Below are positions 5,384 through 54,820 of a DNA stretch of 64,000 nt, piece after piece. The notes under the pieces were generated by a model that saw only the letters and a list, made by a program, of their open reading frames with translations, had not been told where the DNA came from and made no database searches. Each line of letters begins with the position of its first letter. Positions within the stretch are counted from its first letter, which is position 1. A program made the translations under genes and the position numbers. The stretch comes from an uncultured virus (IMG/VR IMGVR_UViG_3300042013_000063). Taxonomy: Duplodnaviria; Heunggongvirae; Uroviricota; Caudoviricetes. The DNA lies in IMG/VR virus record IMGVR_UViG_3300042013_000063; one strand, given 5' to 3'.

Positions 5384-5414
5384 GGGCAGGGGCATACGCC
5401 CCTGTCTCTATGCC
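5383..5414 (+). terminator. hairpin followed by TCTATGCC
   Basis: GGCAGGGGC-ATAC-GCCCCTGTC stem-loop then TCTATGCC. Confidence 0.55.
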
Positions 5415-9970: not shown

Positions 9971-11863
9971 ATGGCTGTTAAAAACCAACTTGATGCCGGC
10001 ACCCCAGAAGAGCGCGCACCTCGCCAAGACCGTACCGAGCGTACGTCCGAGCGTGCAGCGACTCCTGAACAGTCGACTCGTCGCCAAGGCTCCCTGAAAG
10101 ACGTCAACCGTCTACTGGGTGGCCCTCTGGCTCGTAACACCGGTGGCGAAGCTCTGGTCCACGCAATCACTGCGTTGAAAGACTGGCTGCACGCCGACAA
10201 AAACGTTGGGGGCAGCGGTGTCCTTCAACTGGACAAGCTGACCATCCTCGGCCTGGAGTCGAGCGAGTACAACACCCAGGTTTCCTCGGTGATCTTCGCT
10301 TACCCTCATGAGCAAGATGGCAAGCTGAACGTCTACACCTACGTCGCTGCGCTGGAAGGCTCGATCGACGGCGAAATCCCTGCGCGTATCTACGACCAGA
10401 ACCGTCGTCAGTACCCAGTGCCTGGCGTCGTCGGCGACTTCGTGACCGAAGGCTACCTGAAGACCGCTGCTGACATCGTTAGCAAGCACTTCAGCAACGA
10501 GCGTCGTCAAGTCGAAGTTATCGACAGCGGCTGGCGTACCGTGGGCAAACTGGTGGACTTCTCCCTCAAGGATAACCCAGCAGTTCGCAATATCGCGTTC
10601 TACGCCATCGCTTCCCTGAACGCAATGGTTACCGCAGACGTCGACAACGACCTGTTCTTCGACCTGGACTGGCTCGCTAAAGGCGAGAACCTCGATATCT
10701 CTATCGACGTGTCCGGCCGCGAATTGCAAACCGCCGACCTGCTGCCGCGCCGTTCCGATCTGGTGATCAACATCTCCGGTTCGATTCAGGTTGACGACAC
10801 CCAAGTGCGCAACAAGCTGACCACCGTCGGCGGTTACATCAACCTGGTCTACTCGCCTGATGAAGTCGAGAAGTCCTTCAGCCGCAACCGTGACCAGAAG
10901 ACTCAGGTTTACACCCCAATCTTCATCATGGACAACCTGGACACCGGCGGCAACGCTATCACTCCAGAGCTGCTGTTGCTGGGTATCGCTGGCGCTTCGG
11001 TGATCAGCCGTAGCCAGAACTGGGCGCAAGTGTTCCTGCCGAACGACGTTCAGCGTGGCGCTACCGACTACCGCGACACTGGCTACCTGGGCCTGTTGGG
11101 CCAGAAGCGTGCGTACGTGGACGTTGGTAACCGCACCAGCCTGGACATCGACGAATGGTCCGACTACTTCTTCAGCCTGGTGCGTGAAGAGCTGGCGTGG
11201 GGCATCGAAGTCGAAGAAGGCGGCGACAACAGCTGGATCACTTCCCTGCTGTGGGCTGCTGCAACCGGCGACCGTGACTCGGAAGACCGGCTGTGGGAAT
11301 ACGCTGACCGCCTGACCCTGGGCAACTTCAGCCCGCGTGCGCGCGATCTGGGTGTTAGCAAGTTCGTCAGCCTGTCCGGTTCCCGCTACCTGTCGGGTAC
11401 TTACGTCGACGAGAAAGGCGACGTGCGCGACCTGCGTGACTTCGACATGCTGCGCTGGTTGGTACAAACCGGTAACGAAGATCCTACCATCGCCATCGAC
11501 TGGCAGGAAACCTTCGACAACCCGGACATCGACTGGGAAGTGCGCGTTGCTGAACAGCACCGCATGCTGACTTCGGTCCTGGGCACCAACCTGCAATACA
11601 GCCGTTACGTCAACCTGCTGTACGTGAACCCGGACGCCATCAAGGCGTTGGCTCAGGCCGTAGACGACTGCAAAGTCGGCATCGACCAGAACCAGACCAT
11701 GTACACCTTCGGCAACCGTCGTCTGCGTGGTAACACTCGCATTCACGAGTTCGCATCGGGTGACGTGTCTGGCGGTATCTTCAACCGTTCCCGCGATGTT
11801 GGCGGCAGCCGTGGTTCGCGTCGTTCGCCTCTGGGCAACGGCCTCGGTCGTCGTAACTTCTAA
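9971..11863 (+). CDS. chmA: chimallin, phage nuclear shell protein (phiKZ gp54-like)
   Basis: 630 aa, disordered N-terminus and G/R-rich C-terminus, strong codon bias, AGGAG RBS, immediately upstream of the nvRNAP beta' gene as in nucleus-forming phages. Confidence 0.9.
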   Translation: MAVKNQLDAGTPEERAPRQDRTERTSERAATPEQSTRRQGSLKDVNRLLGGPLARNTGGEALVHAITALKDWLHADKNVGGSGVLQLDKLTILGLESSEYNTQVSSVIFAYPHEQDGKLNVYTYVAALEGSIDGEIPARIYDQNRRQYPVPGVVGDFVTEGYLKTAADIVSKHFSNERRQVEVIDSGWRTVGKLVDFSLKDNPAVRNIAFYAIASLNAMVTADVDNDLFFDLDWLAKGENLDISIDVSGRELQTADLLPRRSDLVINISGSIQVDDTQVRNKLTTVGGYINLVYSPDEVEKSFSRNRDQKTQVYTPIFIMDNLDTGGNAITPELLLLGIAGASVISRSQNWAQVFLPNDVQRGATDYRDTGYLGLLGQKRAYVDVGNRTSLDIDEWSDYFFSLVREELAWGIEVEEGGDNSWITSLLWAAATGDRDSEDRLWEYADRLTLGNFSPRARDLGVSKFVSLSGSRYLSGTYVDEKGDVRDLRDFDMLRWLVQTGNEDPTIAIDWQETFDNPDIDWEVRVAEQHRMLTSVLGTNLQYSRYVNLLYVNPDAIKALAQAVDDCKVGIDQNQTMYTFGNRRLRGNTRIHEFASGDVSGGIFNRSRDVGGSRGSRRSPLGNGLGRRNF

Positions 11864-40932: not shown

Positions 40933-41382
40933 ATGTCAATGATTGAAGTACAGGCCGGTATCCTGGACGTCAAGGCTAACACTCGCGTCTGTACCATTAA
41001 CTTGGTGGGGGCTGCTGGTGCTGGGGTAGCCAAAGAGTTCAGGAACAATGTGCCAGGTTGGTACACGCACTACAAGAAGATGTACTCCAAGATTACTCCT
41101 GACCAGTTCATCGTGTACAAGTTCGAGGGAGAGATCCACTTGATGGTACCCACGAAGATTGACTGGAAGGAAGATTCACCCAGAGACCTCGTGATGGCTA
41201 ACTTGGAGAAGCTGGCCAAGATAACGCGAGATAACCCTGCGTTCGGCGTCATTGCTCTTCCAGCATTCGGCTGTGGGAATGGCGGACTGAACTACTATTC
41301 TGATATTCGAAAACATTATGTTCGTTTATTTGAGAACCATCCACGAGAATTCATTGTCACCTTAGGGAGATATACACGATGA
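40933..41382 (+). CDS. macro-domain protein (ADP-ribose binding/hydrolase)
   Basis: CTINLVGAAGAGVAKEF, PTKIDW and IALPAFGCGNGGL macro-domain motifs. Confidence 0.88.
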   Translation: MSMIEVQAGILDVKANTRVCTINLVGAAGAGVAKEFRNNVPGWYTHYKKMYSKITPDQFIVYKFEGEIHLMVPTKIDWKEDSPRDLVMANLEKLAKITRDNPAFGVIALPAFGCGNGGLNYYSDIRKHYVRLFENHPREFIVTLGRYTR

Positions 41383-45427: not shown

Positions 45428-46036
45428 GTGGAATTGAAAGAACTGTCCCGCCAGATCAAAGAGTACCGCGCTTACACCAAGATGAATAAGCAGCTGTTCA
45501 GCAAACTCATCGGCGCCAGTGCCAAAACCCTGACCCGCCTCGAAGACGGTGGTCATATTCTCGTTGAGACGCGTCAAGTGTTCATTAACGCGCTCAACAA
45601 CAAAACGCTGCACCCCGGTATGATCCAGTTAGCCACCAATGGACGTGCTCTTAAGGGCGATGCTGTAGAGTCTGCGTTCGCTAAGCTGAACCTCCCGCTG
45701 CCCCTGAGCATCGAGCTGACTAATCTCATTGAGACAGCCAAGCGCTATCAGCGCCTCATCGTGGCCTGGGGTAAAACGAACGGTCGTCCAACGATGGCTA
45801 ACCGTATGTTCAAGGTAACATCGCAACTCGTGGTGGAACTGGAACGCCCTAACTCTAACGTGCCCAAACAGCGTCATTGCATGATGCTCGGTATGGTGCA
45901 AGGCTTCATGATCAAGGAAGGGGTGATCACGCTCGACGAAGCATTCGACGACCAGAATACGTTGTACTATGTTGACCAATCACCTAAAAAGGGAGCTTCA
46001 CATGAACCGGTTAGCCCATCGCGACAAGCCAGCTAA
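45428..46036 (+). CDS. XRE-like helix-turn-helix protein with additional C-terminal domain
   Basis: IKEYR...MNKQLFSKLIGASAKTLTRLEDG fits the XRE HTH pattern. Confidence 0.7.
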   Translation: MELKELSRQIKEYRAYTKMNKQLFSKLIGASAKTLTRLEDGGHILVETRQVFINALNNKTLHPGMIQLATNGRALKGDAVESAFAKLNLPLPLSIELTNLIETAKRYQRLIVAWGKTNGRPTMANRMFKVTSQLVVELERPNSNVPKQRHCMMLGMVQGFMIKEGVITLDEAFDDQNTLYYVDQSPKKGASHEPVSPSRQAS

Positions 46037-46511
46037 ACAATTCATCGCTTACATCCCGGCTGCTAACGTAGCCAAGATCAAAGAACCTTCGATCGTGATC
46101 TCGATCAAGGGTGCCCATAACGAACGCCCTGAGATCAACACTCAGAAGCACCACGTCTTCAAGCTGGACTTCGACGTCGGTGACTGGGCGGTTGAATGTG
46201 GCAAGAACCTGCAAGAGCAGCAGGTCATTGATCTACTGACGTTCCTTGAGACTCACAAGGACTCTGGTCGTGATGTGTACGTCCACTGCACTGAAGGGCG
46301 TATCCGCTCTTACAGCGTGGCGACTGTGCTGCGTCAGGAAGGTATGTTCATGAGCGCGCGTGGCAACCCGTTGCTGGGTCCAGGCGGTTGCTTGGATCGT
46401 CCTACCTGCAACACCATGAACGAGTACTTCGAGAAACTTGAGAAGCTTGCCGAAGACAAGTCCGAAGAAGTCGCCAGTACCGGTGCAGTCGAACACGTCT
46501 ACACTCAGTAA
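46002..46511 (+). CDS. PTP/dual-specificity-like cysteine phosphatase
   Basis: VYVHCTEGRIRS (HCxxGxxRS) P-loop; upstream FD; GGGAG RBS before ATG 46002. Confidence 0.85.
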   Translation: MNRLAHRDKPAKQFIAYIPAANVAKIKEPSIVISIKGAHNERPEINTQKHHVFKLDFDVGDWAVECGKNLQEQQVIDLLTFLETHKDSGRDVYVHCTEGRIRSYSVATVLRQEGMFMSARGNPLLGPGGCLDRPTCNTMNEYFEKLEKLAEDKSEEVASTGAVEHVYTQ

Positions 46512-46517
46512 GCGTCA

Positions 46518-46556
46518 GCAGGAGAGGGGCAACCCTCTCCTGCATTCCTTTTCTTT
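46518..46556 (+). terminator. intrinsic terminator
   Basis: GCAGGAGAGGG-GCAA-CCCTCTCCTGC then T-rich tract. Confidence 0.8.
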
Positions 46557-46585
46557 GGCCTAAAATCGTAATAAAATCCATACCC

Positions 46586-46598
46586 TACATCAATATGT
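46586..46598 (+). promoter_or_regulatory. putative promoter (variant TACATCAA) for RNA cluster
   Basis: AATAAAAT-CCATACCC-TACATCAA, same spacing as other early-type motifs; also contains TATG. Confidence 0.5.
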
Positions 46599-46666
46599 GG
46601 GAGCAGTTCGTGTTACTCCATTCCTTGTGGTTGTAAGCATAAAACGTGACGAGCATGCGTCCCACA
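46596..46666 (+). ncRNA. candidate structured RNA 1 (long bulged hairpin)
   Basis: TGTGGGA/TCCCACA, GCA/TGC and GTTCGT/ACGAGC nested stems. Confidence 0.5.
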
Positions 46667-46680
46667 CATCTTCCTGAACC

Positions 46681-46790
46681 GGGAGCGGTACCGAGAGAAG
46701 GCTTCATCTACCTGTGACAATCGAGCCCTACCCGTCGGCCTCATTGATTGTCCTCTTGGCTATCGCTCCCACCTATTCCGTGGTGAGCTT
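46681..46790 (+). ncRNA. candidate structured RNA 2 (rod with large bulge)
   Basis: GGGAGCGGTA/TATCGCTCCC, CCGAGAG/CTCTTGG, GACAATCGA/TTGATTGTC and GCC/GGC nested stems with several G-U pairs. Confidence 0.55.
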
Positions 46791-46815
46791 TATGGTACCT
46801 GTAGGCTTGAGTAAA

Positions 46816-46950
46816 ATGGACCTCAGCAAAGTCAAGCCGAAGTCCCGTGAAGAACACCGCAAGACTCTGGACCAATGGTTCGCGAGTCAGCGCGAGCTTG
46901 AAAGGATCTGTAAGGAGCAGGGCATCCCCGTTCCGATCATGGTCTGTTGA
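46816..46950 (+). CDS. small hypothetical protein (44 aa)
   Basis: ATG 46816 in ORF 46714..46950; phage-like codon usage only from this ATG. Confidence 0.5.
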   Translation: MDLSKVKPKSREEHRKTLDQWFASQRELERICKEQGIPVPIMVC

Positions 46951-46956
46951 TTTATG

Positions 46957-47057
46957 GCGGGGTTAACTCAATTGGATAGAGTACTGCCAGTAACCGTCCT
47001 GTCCCCATCAGACGGTGACCGCGGGAGATGCCGGTTCGAATCCGGTGCCCTTCCCCA
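46957..47057 (+). ncRNA. tRNA-like RNA with extended anticodon arm
   Basis: Canonical D arm (TA-ACTC-AATTGGATA-GAGT), T arm (GCCGG-TTCGAAT-CCGGT), imperfect acceptor stem and encoded CCA; anticodon arm ~24 nt too long. Confidence 0.7.
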
Positions 47058-47059
47058 CT

Positions 47060-47206
47060 ACACGTCCCTCGGTGTGCACGCCCTGGGAAGCGACTTTGTC
47101 GAGGTTCATCCGATAAAGCTACGCAGTGTTACCTGATGGACTACCATACGACCTCCTCATGGAGACGTGGTACGTGACTTTGTTGGTAGAACAGTAACCC
47201 GCACAA
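47060..47206 (+). ncRNA. candidate structured RNA 4 (multibranch)
   Basis: CTTTGTCG/CGATAAAG, GTTAC/GTAAC, CTACCA/TGGTAG and CTCC/GGAG stems. Confidence 0.45.
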
Positions 47207-47215
47207 AGCCTCTGT

Positions 47216-47257
47216 ATCCTCCTCCCGAAAGGGAGGAGGATGTATGCCCTCTTCTTT
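47216..47257 (+). terminator. terminator closing the RNA cluster
   Basis: ATCCTCCTCCC-GAAA-GGGAGGAGGAT then GTATGCCC and pyrimidine tract. Confidence 0.75.
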
Positions 47258-47275
47258 AACCATTAGGAGCAACAC

Positions 47276-47554
47276 ATGGTCATCCCGGACAACGCACTAA
47301 TCCTCAATGGCAAGGTTATTGCCATCTTAGAAGAGAGTTCTGCTGCTAGCCTTATTGAGTTGGCGGACGGAGGTAACCAACCGGGTATGCAATACTGCGG
47401 TCTGGAGATCCCTCTGCGCCGTAATGATGACACCATTGACAGACAACCTATCAATCACCGCGCAGATGCTGAGACCCCTGTCAGCAAACGTGAGGTAAAG
47501 TTGACGATTGAGTTCACTCGCCGGGGTGAAACCAAGTTCGTAGTCGACCGCTAA
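47276..47554 (+). CDS. hypothetical protein
   Basis: AGGAG RBS; 92 aa. Confidence 0.7.
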   Translation: MVIPDNALILNGKVIAILEESSAASLIELADGGNQPGMQYCGLEIPLRRNDDTIDRQPINHRADAETPVSKREVKLTIEFTRRGETKFVVDR

Positions 47555-47575
47555 GATCCCACTTTATTTCGATCC

Positions 47576-47593
47576 TACATTACTCGGGTGATG
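47576..47593 (+). promoter_or_regulatory. putative early promoter TACATTAC
   Basis: ACTTTATTTC-GATCC-TACATTAC...GTGAT. Confidence 0.7.
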
Positions 47594-47636
47594 TAACCTA
47601 CAAGGATACACTTTACCTAAGTCAAGGGGACTTGAG

Positions 47637-48059
47637 ATGAATGCTTTAGAGTTTGCACGTGCGTACTTCAACTTCTGTGGAGACATCGGGGAAAGACCCG
47701 AGCATGTAATTGTTTCTGCGGGAGGTGCGCTACTGATGCTTGGGCTGCGTGATGAGACTGATGACTTGGACTTGGACGTACGTCAGATTGTGTACGCCGC
47801 TTTGTCCACGCGTCTGGGTCATAGCAAGCAACGTCGTTCTAGCCATGGTACTTACCTGGACTATACCGACAAGATCAGCCTGCACGTGACACCAGCTCGC
47901 ATCACGACTCAGGTGGTTAATGGGGTCACCCTGTATTCCATCAATGACTTGATCAAGCAGAAAGAGAAGTTGGCCAAAGCTCCTGATCGTAAACCTGAAA
48001 AGGCAGAACAGGATCGTAAAGACATCGAAGCCCTTATGAAGCTTCAGCTCCAGCACTAA
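47637..48059 (+). CDS. minimal Pol-beta-superfamily nucleotidyltransferase-like protein
   Basis: SAGGALLMLGLRDETDDLDL (GG..R.T.DxD) and C-terminal K...R..K...D..DI motif. Confidence 0.75.
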   Translation: MNALEFARAYFNFCGDIGERPEHVIVSAGGALLMLGLRDETDDLDLDVRQIVYAALSTRLGHSKQRRSSHGTYLDYTDKISLHVTPARITTQVVNGVTLYSINDLIKQKEKLAKAPDRKPEKAEQDRKDIEALMKLQLQH

Positions 48060-53080: not shown

Positions 53081-54820
53081 TTACGCTGCTTCCAACTCCA
53101 GCTCTTCTTCGAAGGCATCCAGCAGTTCCCATGAGTTCGGCGCCTTCAGTGCGTCCGTCATGATCTCAATGGCATTCACAGCACCACCCGTGAGGTTGAT
53201 ACCGAGTAGCCTTTGCTTGCTTGGGAGTACGCCCGCTACTCGACACACCTCCATCATCGTAGTCATCTTCGACAGGTTCATCAGGATCTCGCCGTTCGGG
53301 TACGTTGACCCAATGTCGGCGTCGGATACACCCTTACGAACAAAGCTGCGGACTGTCGGCAGTTCTTTGATGAGGAACACGCCGTTGGCTACGACGTTGT
53401 GCGTTGGCAGGGTTACGATCCAGTCGTCCTTACCCAGCAACAGACGGTCGTTCTCATCTTCCATCTGGTCAGAGCACGTACCGGCGATCAGACCTTCCTT
53501 ACGCATCGCGAAGTAGAACTCGTTCACGTTACGCTTAGGGTTGGAGTTGAAGACGGTGTACTCGGAGCTTTCCGACAGGATACTGACCTGAGTCGACAAG
53601 TCCGTGGTGACCTCGTCCAGCAGCTCAATACCCAAGTTGTCGAAGATGTTGTAGACGATGTAGTTGACTTTGTAGTACTTCTGCATCTGCATGTGCCATT
53701 CGACACTGCCCGGTACAGCGGTACTGTCACCCATTGGGAAGTAGAGCTTGCCTATGTCATCGCCCAAGTTCTTCTTCATGGTGTAGTCGAGGCCGTAACT
53801 TGGCTCTTTACCAGCAGCAGTACGGATCTTACGGTACACGCACATCGGGTCAATCCAGACAAACGAGGCTGGAGCTTCTACGACGTTCCAACGGTCAGAA
53901 GGGGGTAGGTTCTCAATAGAACCGTCAGCCTTCTTCTTCGTGGTCGGACCTGGCTTGTACTTGAAGTGACGATACTCAGGCGGTACACGAGGGTCACTGA
54001 ACACGTCAGGGAGATCGTAGCCGTCCTTCTCCAACGCACGGGTCATGACGTTGATATCGAAGTCCATGTTCCATGCACAGAGGAAGTCAGGTTGCCATTC
54101 GTGGACCCGATCCATGCACACCTTCGCCATCTTACCGGCAGAGTCGATGATCTGGATCTCGAACTTCATCCCGCGTTCTTCGATGTACTTAGCCAAGTGC
54201 TGGTGCAAGGCTTTCATGATCGTGTTGATCGGATCAGGGATGTCCTTGATCCAACTCTCCAAGATCGTCAGGATCACCTTGTCCTTACAGGTGACCGAGG
54301 AGATGATGATGTCTTTACCGTTACCGTTCCACATGTCAGTTTCGGTGTCGAGTGCGGCTACCACGTTCTGTGTGAACAGGTCAGGCCACTTCTCCTTATA
54401 CGTGCGCTTCATCAACGTAGGCGTGGTGATGTCAGCCCCGTAGATGTACTGGTTACGGCAGATGGTGCGTAACTGCTGCTTAGGGTTACCGTAACCTAAC
54501 TGCCGAATGATCGCCTTGTTCAAGCCCCGTTGGTTAGTCTCGCACTCTTTGAGCAGGTGTTCGTATTCGACTTCCTTCTTGTCCGTATGGTTACGGAACT
54601 TCTCTTTAGTGATCCAGAAGGGCCGCATGTAGTTCTTCTTGAAGACCAACCGTGGCACAGTAGAGACCGTACCGTCTGGTTGCTTGACGTAGACCAGCTC
54701 TTTGATGGTCAGTAGGTCGTCGTCTTCGTTCTCACGTGACTCGGTGTAGATGGCATGCTTACATTCGCGCCCAATGATCCACTCAGCCGGGATCTTCTTT
54801 AGGTCAATTTCGGTTGACAT
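53081..54820 (-). CDS. split family-B DNA polymerase, 3'-5' exonuclease plus motif A subunit (phiKZ gp82-like)
   Basis: ExoI DTETD, ExoII WNMDFD, ExoIII YNIFD, motif A DADIGSTYPN near the C-terminus. Confidence 0.88.
   Translation of the reverse strand: MSTEIDLKKIPAEWIIGRECKHAIYTESRENEDDDLLTIKELVYVKQPDGTVSTVPRLVFKKNYMRPFWITKEKFRNHTDKKEVEYEHLLKECETNQRGLNKAIIRQLGYGNPKQQLRTICRNQYIYGADITTPTLMKRTYKEKWPDLFTQNVVAALDTETDMWNGNGKDIIISSVTCKDKVILTILESWIKDIPDPINTIMKALHQHLAKYIEERGMKFEIQIIDSAGKMAKVCMDRVHEWQPDFLCAWNMDFDINVMTRALEKDGYDLPDVFSDPRVPPEYRHFKYKPGPTTKKKADGSIENLPPSDRWNVVEAPASFVWIDPMCVYRKIRTAAGKEPSYGLDYTMKKNLGDDIGKLYFPMGDSTAVPGSVEWHMQMQKYYKVNYIVYNIFDNLGIELLDEVTTDLSTQVSILSESSEYTVFNSNPKRNVNEFYFAMRKEGLIAGTCSDQMEDENDRLLLGKDDWIVTLPTHNVVANGVFLIKELPTVRSFVRKGVSDADIGSTYPNGEILMNLSKMTTMMEVCRVAGVLPSKQRLLGINLTGGAVNAIEIMTDALKAPNSWELLDAFEEELELEAA

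Follow-up and report, generated by a model that had tools for sequence, protein, structure and literature searches.

The viral DNA analysed here (IMG/VR record IMGVR_UViG_3300042013_000063, a stretch of 64 kb with 53.5% G+C, hereafter the window) carries at positions 46956-47057 an element with the shape of a transfer RNA (tRNA). The element is a tRNA-derived sequence and not a product of chance, and it cannot decode as encoded, its anticodon loop being replaced by a closed hairpin. A conserved structured RNA stretch follows it almost directly, and the reading that we favour, if tentatively, is that the tRNA body no longer decodes, is kept to serve as processing handle or carrier, and is co-transcribed with this downstream RNA. 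Two roles, codon supply and anti-defence, are usually given to the tRNA genes of phages; a body kept behind a sealed anticodon would point to a second use of this fold, that of an RNA-processing handle or carrier. The setting is that of the nucleus-forming phages, where it touches on the making, maturation and movement of RNA.

The elements of a cloverleaf are all in place (Table 1): a 7-bp acceptor stem, the D arm, the T-loop consensus and the core, with one mismatch (C2.U71) in the acceptor of the window allele. U8 and A9 stand directly 3' of the 5' acceptor strand, and U8, A14, A15 with U48, G18, G19, A21, G53, U54, U55, C56, A58 and C61, which we take to be the tRNA tertiary core, are present. 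An earlier description made from the letters of the window (hereafter the sequence-only reading) had listed the arms, the loops, the encoded CCA, an acceptor with a C-U mismatch and two G-U pairs, and an anticodon stem extended by a further helix with a 7-nucleotide (nt) loop. Every one of these features is present in the sequence, and the proposed fold of the arm was reproduced exactly by ViennaRNA: the arm alone forms the closed hairpin as described, at -13.4 kcal/mol (z -2.08, 7 of 200 shuffles as good). The fold of the whole element was no more stable than those of shuffles (z -0.44) and was taken as uninformative. Four features can be added to that description, namely an A.G mismatch within the 9-bp extension helix, a 2x1 internal loop, a bulged C, and a G at 46956 (G-1) that can pair with C73 (47054) to give an acceptor helix of 8 bp.

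The origin of the element was assessed with a covariance model, which was based on 29 canonical tRNAs from related phages and run against the 64-kb window with filters off. The element scored 26.6 bits (E 5.9e-5, rough calibration), with the anticodon loop handled by the model as a 33-nt local end, and was the sole significant match in the window; the next best of the 12 model matches listed reached 10.8 bits (E 1.4), leaving a gap of 16 bits. With such a score and no second significant match, we conclude that the sequence derives from a tRNA and does not resemble one by chance. Standard tools were silent, as ARAGORN at default settings returned no gene in the window and Rfam at gathering scores no match, and for annotation this means that such genes escape both tools at default settings. 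The best permissive Rfam match in 46800-47300 was tRNA-Sec at 21.7 bits (cut-off 47), resting on the 8-bp acceptor; it was rejected together with two other sub-threshold matches, CRISPR-DR53 (on the terminator-type hairpin) and mir-789. The check with ARAGORN proposed in the sequence-only reading thus came out negative at default, and positive only at a lowered threshold of 90% with introns allowed, where the element was called as tRNA-His(GTG) with a 24-nt intron at 46989-47012. Since five of the six calls obtained in this way, that is all five further calls in the window, lie inside long open reading frames (ORFs), the call alone is no evidence and was not used as such.

Searches for copies of the element elsewhere gave nothing. 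No match to the 2 kb around the element was found in GenBank phage DNA (50,697 records), exact IMG/VR scans with two stretches of the element gave 0 and 0 hits, and its 3' 24-mer had 0 hits in GTDB genomes; GGTTCGAATCC occurs once in the window. The complement of the hairpin loop, ATGGGGA, was found 0 times on the plus strand of the window and three times on the minus strand besides the element's own antisense, and provided no lead.

The anticodon arm is where the element departs from a tRNA. The 31 nt between the halves of the anticodon stem are paired with each other, leaving no 5-bp stem and 7-nt loop with U33 and purine 37, and the GTG at 47015-47017 is paired in the 3' strand of the extension helix, not displayed in a loop. 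Excision of the intron placed by ARAGORN would give a C-G-GUG-A-C loop in which G33 takes the place of U33, on a stem with a C31.C39 mismatch, and none of the splice registers tried by hand gave a 7-nt loop with U33. The sequence-only reading had held that the arm does not fit normal decoding and that the insert is not a self-splicing intron, and both statements stood. Group I introns are some 200 nt or more in length and have a conserved catalytic core; the insert counts 24 nt (17 nt in two of the strain variants described below) and has no Rfam intron match. An archaeal or eukaryal protein-spliced intron was likewise excluded, as the fold has no bulge-helix-bulge (no pair of 3-nt bulges 4 bp apart) and the insert is located 5' of the anticodon, not at 37/38. 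We also rejected tRNA-Sec, a class marked by a UCA anticodon and a long variable arm and for which the element stays below the Rfam cut-off, and transfer-messenger RNA (tmRNA), a tag reading frame between tRNA-like ends, for which the tmRNA mode of ARAGORN gave 0 genes in the window and with which a complete D arm and an excess of no more than 24 nt agree poorly.

To place the element among its relatives, related loci (designated L) were collected from metagenomes. The DNA polymerase piece 53081-54820 used as a query gave 15 IMG/VR loci, with L005 at 79% identity and the rest at 65-67%, and an alignment (A1) of the protein encoded at 45969-46511 with its homologues led to 18 metagenome loci; L012 and L026 are one contig in two collections. 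In many of these relatives a tRNA cluster is located downstream of the 45969-46511 homologue. Its typical order is Tyr, Asp, Gln, Asn and an insert-bearing Glu/Sec-like gene, followed in L010, L011 and L030 by tRNA-His(GTG) as the last gene (16710-16782 in L010 and 7356-7428 in L030).

The stretch behind the element is conserved in several of the same relatives, with 75% identity over 108 nt (E 2e-9). The consensus fold of four distinct sequences contains 61 pairs, with 93.8% of cells paired, and has a long-range closing helix around several hairpins. Twelve pairs are changed on both sides, versus 5.6 +/- 1.6 in shuffled alignments (0 of 500 reach 12) and 1-4 in slid controls, a count taken from only four sequences and on a structure derived from the same alignment. 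Indels of one base speak against a coding function, and the stretch had no Rfam match. Its homologue follows tRNA-His in L030, a "double" tRNA-like gene in L012/L026, and ORFs in L028. The junction C73-CCA-C-TACACGTC, together with the RNA of about 160 nt after it, is common to the window and L030; from this shared junction and the synteny of the locus it follows that the element stands at the place of the last tRNA of the cluster, fused to the downstream RNA and to the terminator-type hairpin behind it. By blastn the downstream RNA was not found in L005, L010, L011, L013 and L014, and L010 and L013 share a different conserved trailer. An IMG/VR scan with the core of this RNA returned three matches, one of which is the L012 contig and two of which are chance matches in AT-rich contigs.

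Further evidence came from natural variants. Contigs of four public sequencing runs with near-identical DNA (X2, X4, X6 and X8) were aligned to 46400-47700. X2 was identical to the window over the element. X4 and X6, which belong to two different studies, have one shared allele, where 46958 C>A and 46959 G>A replace C2.U71 and G3.U70 by one A-U pair each, 46993 A>G converts an A-U into a G.U pair of the extension helix, 47012 is changed A>C, and seven letters are absent around 47000-47009 at the hairpin tip, leaving an insert of 17 nt. None of the listed changes of this allele falls in the D arm, the variable loop, the T arm or the 3' acceptor strand. With the changes applied, the element takes a cloverleaf as its minimum-energy fold, in which the 8-bp acceptor has no mismatch and the hairpin is still closed, and ARAGORN accepts it at the 95% threshold as tRNA-His(GTG) with a 17-nt intron. 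In X4 the adjoining ORF 46714-46950 differs at 12 listed positions out of 237 nt, the element body has only the two pair-making changes, and 47013-47259 has no listed change (three at most may be hidden). X8 is the most distant (about 93% alike), with 34 other letters and three gaps in 46548-47057; it has the window letters at the four X4/X6 sites and no indel in the insert, so that the X4/X6 state looks derived.

These contrasts between alleles are suggestive of a body that is kept or improved while the arm drifts. The combination of body repair and a free arm in X4/X6 fits enzymes of tRNA-end processing that read only the acceptor/T-arm half of the molecule. Two of the runs, X6 and X8, are registered as RNA libraries and have contigs across the element; neither transcription nor RNA ends can be read from contigs, and DNA may have been present. 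One X6 contig stops at 47193 within adapter sequence, from which nothing follows.

Signals that could drive transcription of the locus were compared with those of phage phiKZ, for which passages of PMC4666361 give the late promoter as TATG, with its G as the start site, and the middle promoters as AAanTTACc near -24. Apart from the box at 46567-46597, a like box (CGTAAAAAATTAC, with TATG about 20 nt on) was found 48-84 nt upstream of the first tRNA in L020, L007, L019 and L010. Judged by its motif and position, the box at 46567-46597 is likely the start of a unit reading into the element, and this unit is ordered as box, ORF 46714-46950, TATG, element, structured RNA, hairpin, TATG and next gene. 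The TATG at 46953-46956 is one of 88 on the plus strand of the window, with 60 more on the minus strand. Ten of the 30 intergenic TATG sites inspected directly follow a G+C-rich hairpin, several of them as two-way pairs; the site at 46953-46956 has no hairpin before it and is followed by GC instead of the usual C-pyrimidine. Cassettes of a hairpin and TATG C-pyrimidine were observed in the window at 5409, 8477, 24651, 32148/32182, 47243, 53028/53057 and 58149/58182, some being palindromic and serving both strands, and they are probably joint terminator and late-promoter signals of the phage; outside such cassettes TATG is rare in the window.

Table 1. Positions of the element, its parts and the features around it in the window, and of homologous or similar features in related loci.
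Feature	Position	Strand	Details
tRNA-shaped element	46956-47057	+	G-1, 7-bp acceptor, D arm, 4-bp anticodon stem with hairpin extension, 5-nt variable loop, T arm, C73, CCA
Acceptor stem	46957-46963 / 47047-47053	+	GCGGGGT / GCCCTTC; G1-C72, C2.U71 mismatch, G3.U70, three G-C pairs, U7.G66
D arm	46966-46982	+	ACTC / AATTGGATA / GAGT
Anticodon stem	46984-46987 / 47021-47024	+	CTGC / GCGG
Insert as placed by ARAGORN	46989-47012	+	24 nt; with 47013-47019 forms the closed extension burying GTG (47015-47017)
Extension helix	46990-46998 / 47011-47019	+	GTAACCGTC / GACGGTGAC, then TG/CA
Cap loop of extension	47002-47008	+	TCCCCAT
T arm, after variable loop GAGAT	47030-47046	+	GCCGG / TTCGAAT / CCGGT
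C73; encoded CCA	47054; 47055-47057	+	
Promoter-like box	46567-46597	+	AATCGTAATAAAATCC ... TATG; upstream of ORF 46714-46950; resembles phiKZ middle motif
ORF of 78 aa, conserved hypothetical	46714-46950	+	stop 6 nt before element; homologues in L005, L007, L015, L016, L018, L019, L021, L031
TATG box	46953-46956	+	last G is G-1; candidate late-type start site
Conserved structured non-coding stretch	47059-47213	+	155 nt; starts one base after CCA
Homologues of 47059-47213	L030 7431-7625; L026 7607-7801; L028 7729-7924		
Terminator-type hairpin	47216-47241	+	11-bp stem, GAAA loop; equivalent covaries in L030, L026, L028 (helix 8)
TATG box for next gene (47276-47554)	47243-47246	+	homologous to TTTATGC in L005 spacer; of the hairpin-TATG series
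Double tRNA-likes	L012 16766-16914 (= L026 7455-7603); L014 7867-8018; L021 8011-8175		

In the favoured reading the element would have arisen from the last gene of the tRNA cluster of this clade, where some relatives keep tRNA-His(GTG), and decoding would have been lost with a closed hairpin that takes the place of the anticodon loop, pairs the GTG and makes the arm too long for the ribosome. Transcription would begin either at the box at 46567-46597, running through ORF 46714-46950, or at the element's own TATG with G-1 as the first base; either start would lead to read-through into 47059-47213 and a stop at the hairpin 47216-47241. The tRNA body would then be used as a standard substrate for end processing, by RNase P at the 5' end and by 3' trimming at the CCA, and the cuts would separate the upstream messenger RNA, a stable CCA-ended tRNA-like RNA and a downstream RNA with a fixed 5' end. 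The sequences show the tRNA-derived shape, the lack of a usable anticodon loop, the place in the cluster with its shared junction, the conserved and covarying downstream RNA, and the strain variants; transcription and its start site, cleavage by host enzymes, selection on the body and the need of the downstream RNA for a handle are what we infer here. We favour this reading because the body is intact, the arm free, the junction shared and the acceptor repair derived, and the element is a tRNA-shaped module fused directly to a conserved structured RNA. The locus offers a concrete pair of element and fused RNA, with natural alleles in the form of canonical tRNA-His and of 17-nt, 24-nt and 50-nt inserts.

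The sequence-only reading had proposed a tRNA mimic, serving either as a decoy for tRNA-targeting nucleases and toxins or as a processing signal. Its first part, a tRNA-derived and non-decoding body, was retained, and the decoy for anticodon nucleases was not: nothing here points to a decoy of this kind, and the arm that such nucleases read is the least conserved part (24 versus 17 nt). The processing signal, offered there as an alternative, gained most, as the element abuts a conserved RNA via a junction that L030 shows after a normal tRNA-His.

Several observations weigh against the handle or carrier. The closest relative, L005, has neither the element nor the downstream RNA (no tRNA by ARAGORN or the model), and between its homologues of 46714-46950 and 47276-47554 lies a spacer of about 68 nt with a hairpin and a TTTATGC box; both RNAs are therefore dispensable in the L005 lineage. 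In L028 the downstream RNA follows ORFs and not a tRNA, hence it is not strictly dependent on a tRNA handle, and X8 has 255 extra letters exactly between the CCA (47057) and the start of this RNA (47059). The score of the element in the clade model, 26.6 bits versus 50-54 bits for the insert-bearing tRNA-likes of relatives, is low, and the window allele has the acceptor mismatch. The variant statistics are weak: they comprise four substitutions, the alleles contain mosaic recombination tracts, and 26 of the 34 X8 differences are unlisted and may fall in the element. Finally, the body is unlike the tRNA-His of the clade and its D and T arms are Arg-like, which limits descent from tRNA-His to what position and 3' junction show.

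The signals of isotype that underlie this last point are mixed, and on their sequence no isotype is assignable to the element. Its ends are of His type, with G-1 and C73 unchanged in X2, X4, X6 and X8; GUG is not displayed, and a comparison of its frame with every tRNA in the loci of the relatives gave no clear orthologue. The D-arm 19-mer was found at 42 GTDB loci, 40 of them typed by ARAGORN and 37 of these 40 as tRNA-Arg. The 26 nt from the 3' strand of the anticodon stem through the T arm recur without a difference in a phage tRNA-Arg(TCT) of L083/L084, and the T-arm 22-mer occurs in IMG/VR at five unrelated phage tRNA loci, among which only the Arg(TCT) genes of L083/L084 were informative. 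The alanine mark G3.U70 is present in the window allele and changed in X4/X6. The element may be a recombination chimera of tRNA genes.

The rival that survives best, though we hold it to be somewhat improbable, is a decaying pseudogene, the last tRNA of a shrinking cluster that received an insertion in its anticodon loop and now drifts without function. ARAGORN and the clade model found no canonical tRNA in the 64-kb window, and relatives carry 4-6 at the locus; L005 lost everything there. The acceptor mismatch, a score of 26.6 versus 50-92 bits and the variation in insert length between strains agree with decay as well. The sequence-only reading had named, as findings that would speak for decay, a normal tRNA at this place in relatives and random degeneration: the former was found (L010, L011 and L030), the latter was not seen. 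All core and T-loop positions are intact, and the insert is common to strains about 7% apart (window and X8), yet the body changes of X4/X6 are two adjacent substitutions that both make Watson-Crick pairs, with the D arm, variable loop, T arm and 3' acceptor strand free of listed changes and the hairpin closed even after the 7-nt deletion. Moreover, several relatives conserve tRNA-likes that bear an insert in an intact frame, so that in this clade such a form need not be a dead one. The paired insert, the intact core and the acceptor repair in variants uphold the earlier argument that the insert speaks against simple decay.

An extension of the handle or carrier reading, which we regard as unlikely, is that tRNA-His was turned more than once, in the lineage of the window and in L020, into a carrier body for linked or inserted RNA modules, running from a G-1 set by a late promoter to the CCA. 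The last gene of L020 (1282-1403) has G-1, C73, CCA and the 3' end seen in tRNA-His of L010, and a 50-nt structured insert stands for its anticodon loop; a scan for His-type frames with long bodies found only this gene and the element of the window. If this were true, the body could serve processing, stability, histidylation or export from the phage nucleus, as a counterpart of the herpesvirus tRNA-microRNA (miRNA) units, and the Cys-phosphatase-like gene upstream (45969-46511) might trim the 5' triphosphate.

A tRNA mimic that acts on proteins is decidedly unlikely in our estimate; it would either draw off a defence enzyme or toxin of the host that targets tRNA, as a decoy or sponge, or be charged by histidyl-tRNA synthetase (HisRS) and hold histidine off the ribosome. 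The element has the full elbow and the CCA, and G-1 and C73 remained unchanged in all four variants. According to passages of PMC9976931, G-1:C73 is the identity pair of bacterial tRNA-His and bacterial HisRS charges mini- and microhelices that carry it. The clusters of relatives, with Tyr, Asp, Asn and His (the GUN set), give a hint of pressure on these tRNAs. On the other hand, Pfam and PHROG scans recognised no defence or anti-defence gene next to the element, and its anticodon arm, the target of anticodon nucleases, is the part least conserved. G-1 may be merely the start base of the TATG box, and would in that case bear a 5' triphosphate; the same passages state that the 5'-monophosphate matters for charging and that HisRS uses the anticodon too in vivo (PMC9976931).

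We consider it very improbable that the gene is an intron-bearing tRNA-His, whose 24- or 17-nt insert an unknown endonuclease and ligase would remove to yield a product reading CAY. The call of tRNA-His(GTG) by ARAGORN in intron mode, the variable insert beside conserved flanks, the Glu-like genes of relatives, which have 35-41-nt inserts at 37/38 and a canonical loop after excision, and the "enigmatic introns" of Lak megaphage tRNAs described in PMC6784885 are in its favour. The size of the insert, too small for a group I core, the lack of a visible bulge-helix-bulge, the location 5' of the anticodon and a product with G33 and a C31.C39 mismatch are not, and the window proteins scanned (36 against PHROGs, 20 against Pfam) included no recognisable RNA ligase or splicing endonuclease. 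That the element is no RNA gene at all, as a chance resemblance or as part of the frame 46954-47136 (60 codons from the ATG at 46954), is scarcely credible even with standard tRNA finders silent, since the natural 7-nt deletion of X4/X6 breaks this frame, which is not conserved and therefore not coding, no Shine-Dalgarno sequence is seen before the ATG, and the model match stands clear of all others.

Several known RNAs resemble the element in part. Phage T4 produces two stable RNAs, species 1 and 2 (rnaC and rnaD), which are small and non-decoding, are encoded at the distal end of the tRNA cluster, and are co-transcribed and processed with the tRNAs. The element resembles them as a gene for a non-decoding RNA that takes the last place of a phage tRNA cluster. 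The T4 RNAs exceed it in length, and in the window two adjoining modules, a tRNA-shaped piece and a structured RNA, are seen in the sequence. In the tRNA-miRNA transcripts of murine gammaherpesvirus 68 (MHV68) and in MALAT1-mascRNA, an untranslating tRNA-shaped module is fused to a functional RNA, is cut by tRNA-end enzymes and sets the end of its partner. The fusion of a tRNA-shaped module to another RNA is shared with our case, but those systems, with the tRNA-like piece 5' of the partner in MHV68 and 3' in MALAT1, are eukaryotic and their cleavage was shown experimentally, and here we have only the adjacency and its conservation; mascRNA is named in a passage of PMC9976931.

Among phages, the tRNA genes with "enigmatic introns" of Lak megaphages (Devoto et al. 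2019, PMC6784885) are similar in being seen only by intron-aware prediction and in having a short anticodon-region insert that is neither group I nor explained. The Lak genes were typed to an isotype after excision, whereas here excision leaves no canonical loop, and the phage family (chimallin-encoding) and the habitat differ. Within the clade, tRNA-His(GTG) of L010 and L030 shares with the element the last place in the cluster, G-1, C73 and the encoded CCA, and in L030 an identical junction; the body differs, with D and T arms of Arg type and the GTG paired, not looped. The Glu/Sec-like family and the L020 gene have in common with it the locus, an intact tRNA frame and a structured anticodon-region insert, and differ in the inserts, their positions and the frames. 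Literature searches on tRNA-like decoys and insert-bearing tRNAs of jumbo phages, mostly at abstract level, yielded no account of a tRNA body fused to a conserved RNA, and only the Lak introns were akin.

As to the phage itself, besides a nuclear shell protein (chimallin) at 9971-11863 (E 7e-62), PHROG profiles identified five split RNA polymerase beta/beta'-like subunits, DNA polymerase in two pieces and virion proteins of phiKZ type, and the window is part of a chimallin-encoding, nucleus-forming jumbo phage. A neighbouring protein of 140 aa is at most about 37% identical to proteins of Pseudomonas phage EL and of Ralstonia phages, e.g. FLC4-3B and RP12, and in EL and RP12, which are cultured but distant relatives, no tRNA was found beside the homologue of 47637-48059. 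ORF 46714-46950 had no match to a Pfam or PHROG family.

The Glu/Sec-like family of the relatives (L010 16856-16974, L012 16990-17102, L013 17740-17853, L028 6890-7002 and L030 7168-7281; the gene at L026 7267-7379 is the L012 gene on the same contig) contains a 35-41-nt hairpin after TTTTCA or TTTCA in the anticodon loop, with compensatory changes in the hairpin. Its flanks are conserved (CTGCC...TAACA.ACG...GGCAG), and ARAGORN gives the anticodon as TTC (Glu) or TCA (Sec/opal). From their sequence these genes look more like true intron-bearing tRNAs than the window element does, as excision at 37/38 would leave a canonical loop. A further tRNA-like, L016 15686-15799, starts 7 nt after the stop of the 46714-46950 homologue, which is the element's position; it has a perfect 7-bp acceptor, no CCA, a 47-nt structured insert in the anticodon region and a frame unrelated to that of the element.

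Other tRNA-related observations were made in the clade and beyond. The double tRNA-likes enclose, within one acceptor stem, a set of D arm and T arm twice in succession and measure 148-165 nt, and that of L012/L026 directly precedes the conserved downstream RNA. The canonical tRNAs of the clade (L010-L014, L020, L026, L028 and L030) are those for Tyr, Asp, Asn and His, all GUN, and for Gln, a choice that looks non-random. Tyr, Asp, Asn and His with GUN anticodons constitute the queuosine family. On an unrelated IMG/VR contig, L081, the region 525-947 comprises three consecutive tRNA-likes with 42-46-nt inserts in the anticodon region, detected by ARAGORN at the default threshold in intron mode, and one of them shares the T-arm 22-mer.

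Two proteins of the window deserve mention. The gene at 45969-46511 is located just upstream of the tRNA cluster in those relatives that have the cluster there, and its product has an invariant C-x5-R motif (CGEGRIRS) of Cys-phosphatase type, a Pfam DSPc match of 20.1 bits (below the cut-off) and DUSP10 as the best PDB match (E 0.004); a link of this protein to RNA 5'-end chemistry is a guess. At 40933-41382 a macro-domain protein is encoded, for which the Pfam Macro match is weak (17.6 bits) and the closest solved chain is the "RNase III inhibitor" 5m3i (E 3.4e-12).

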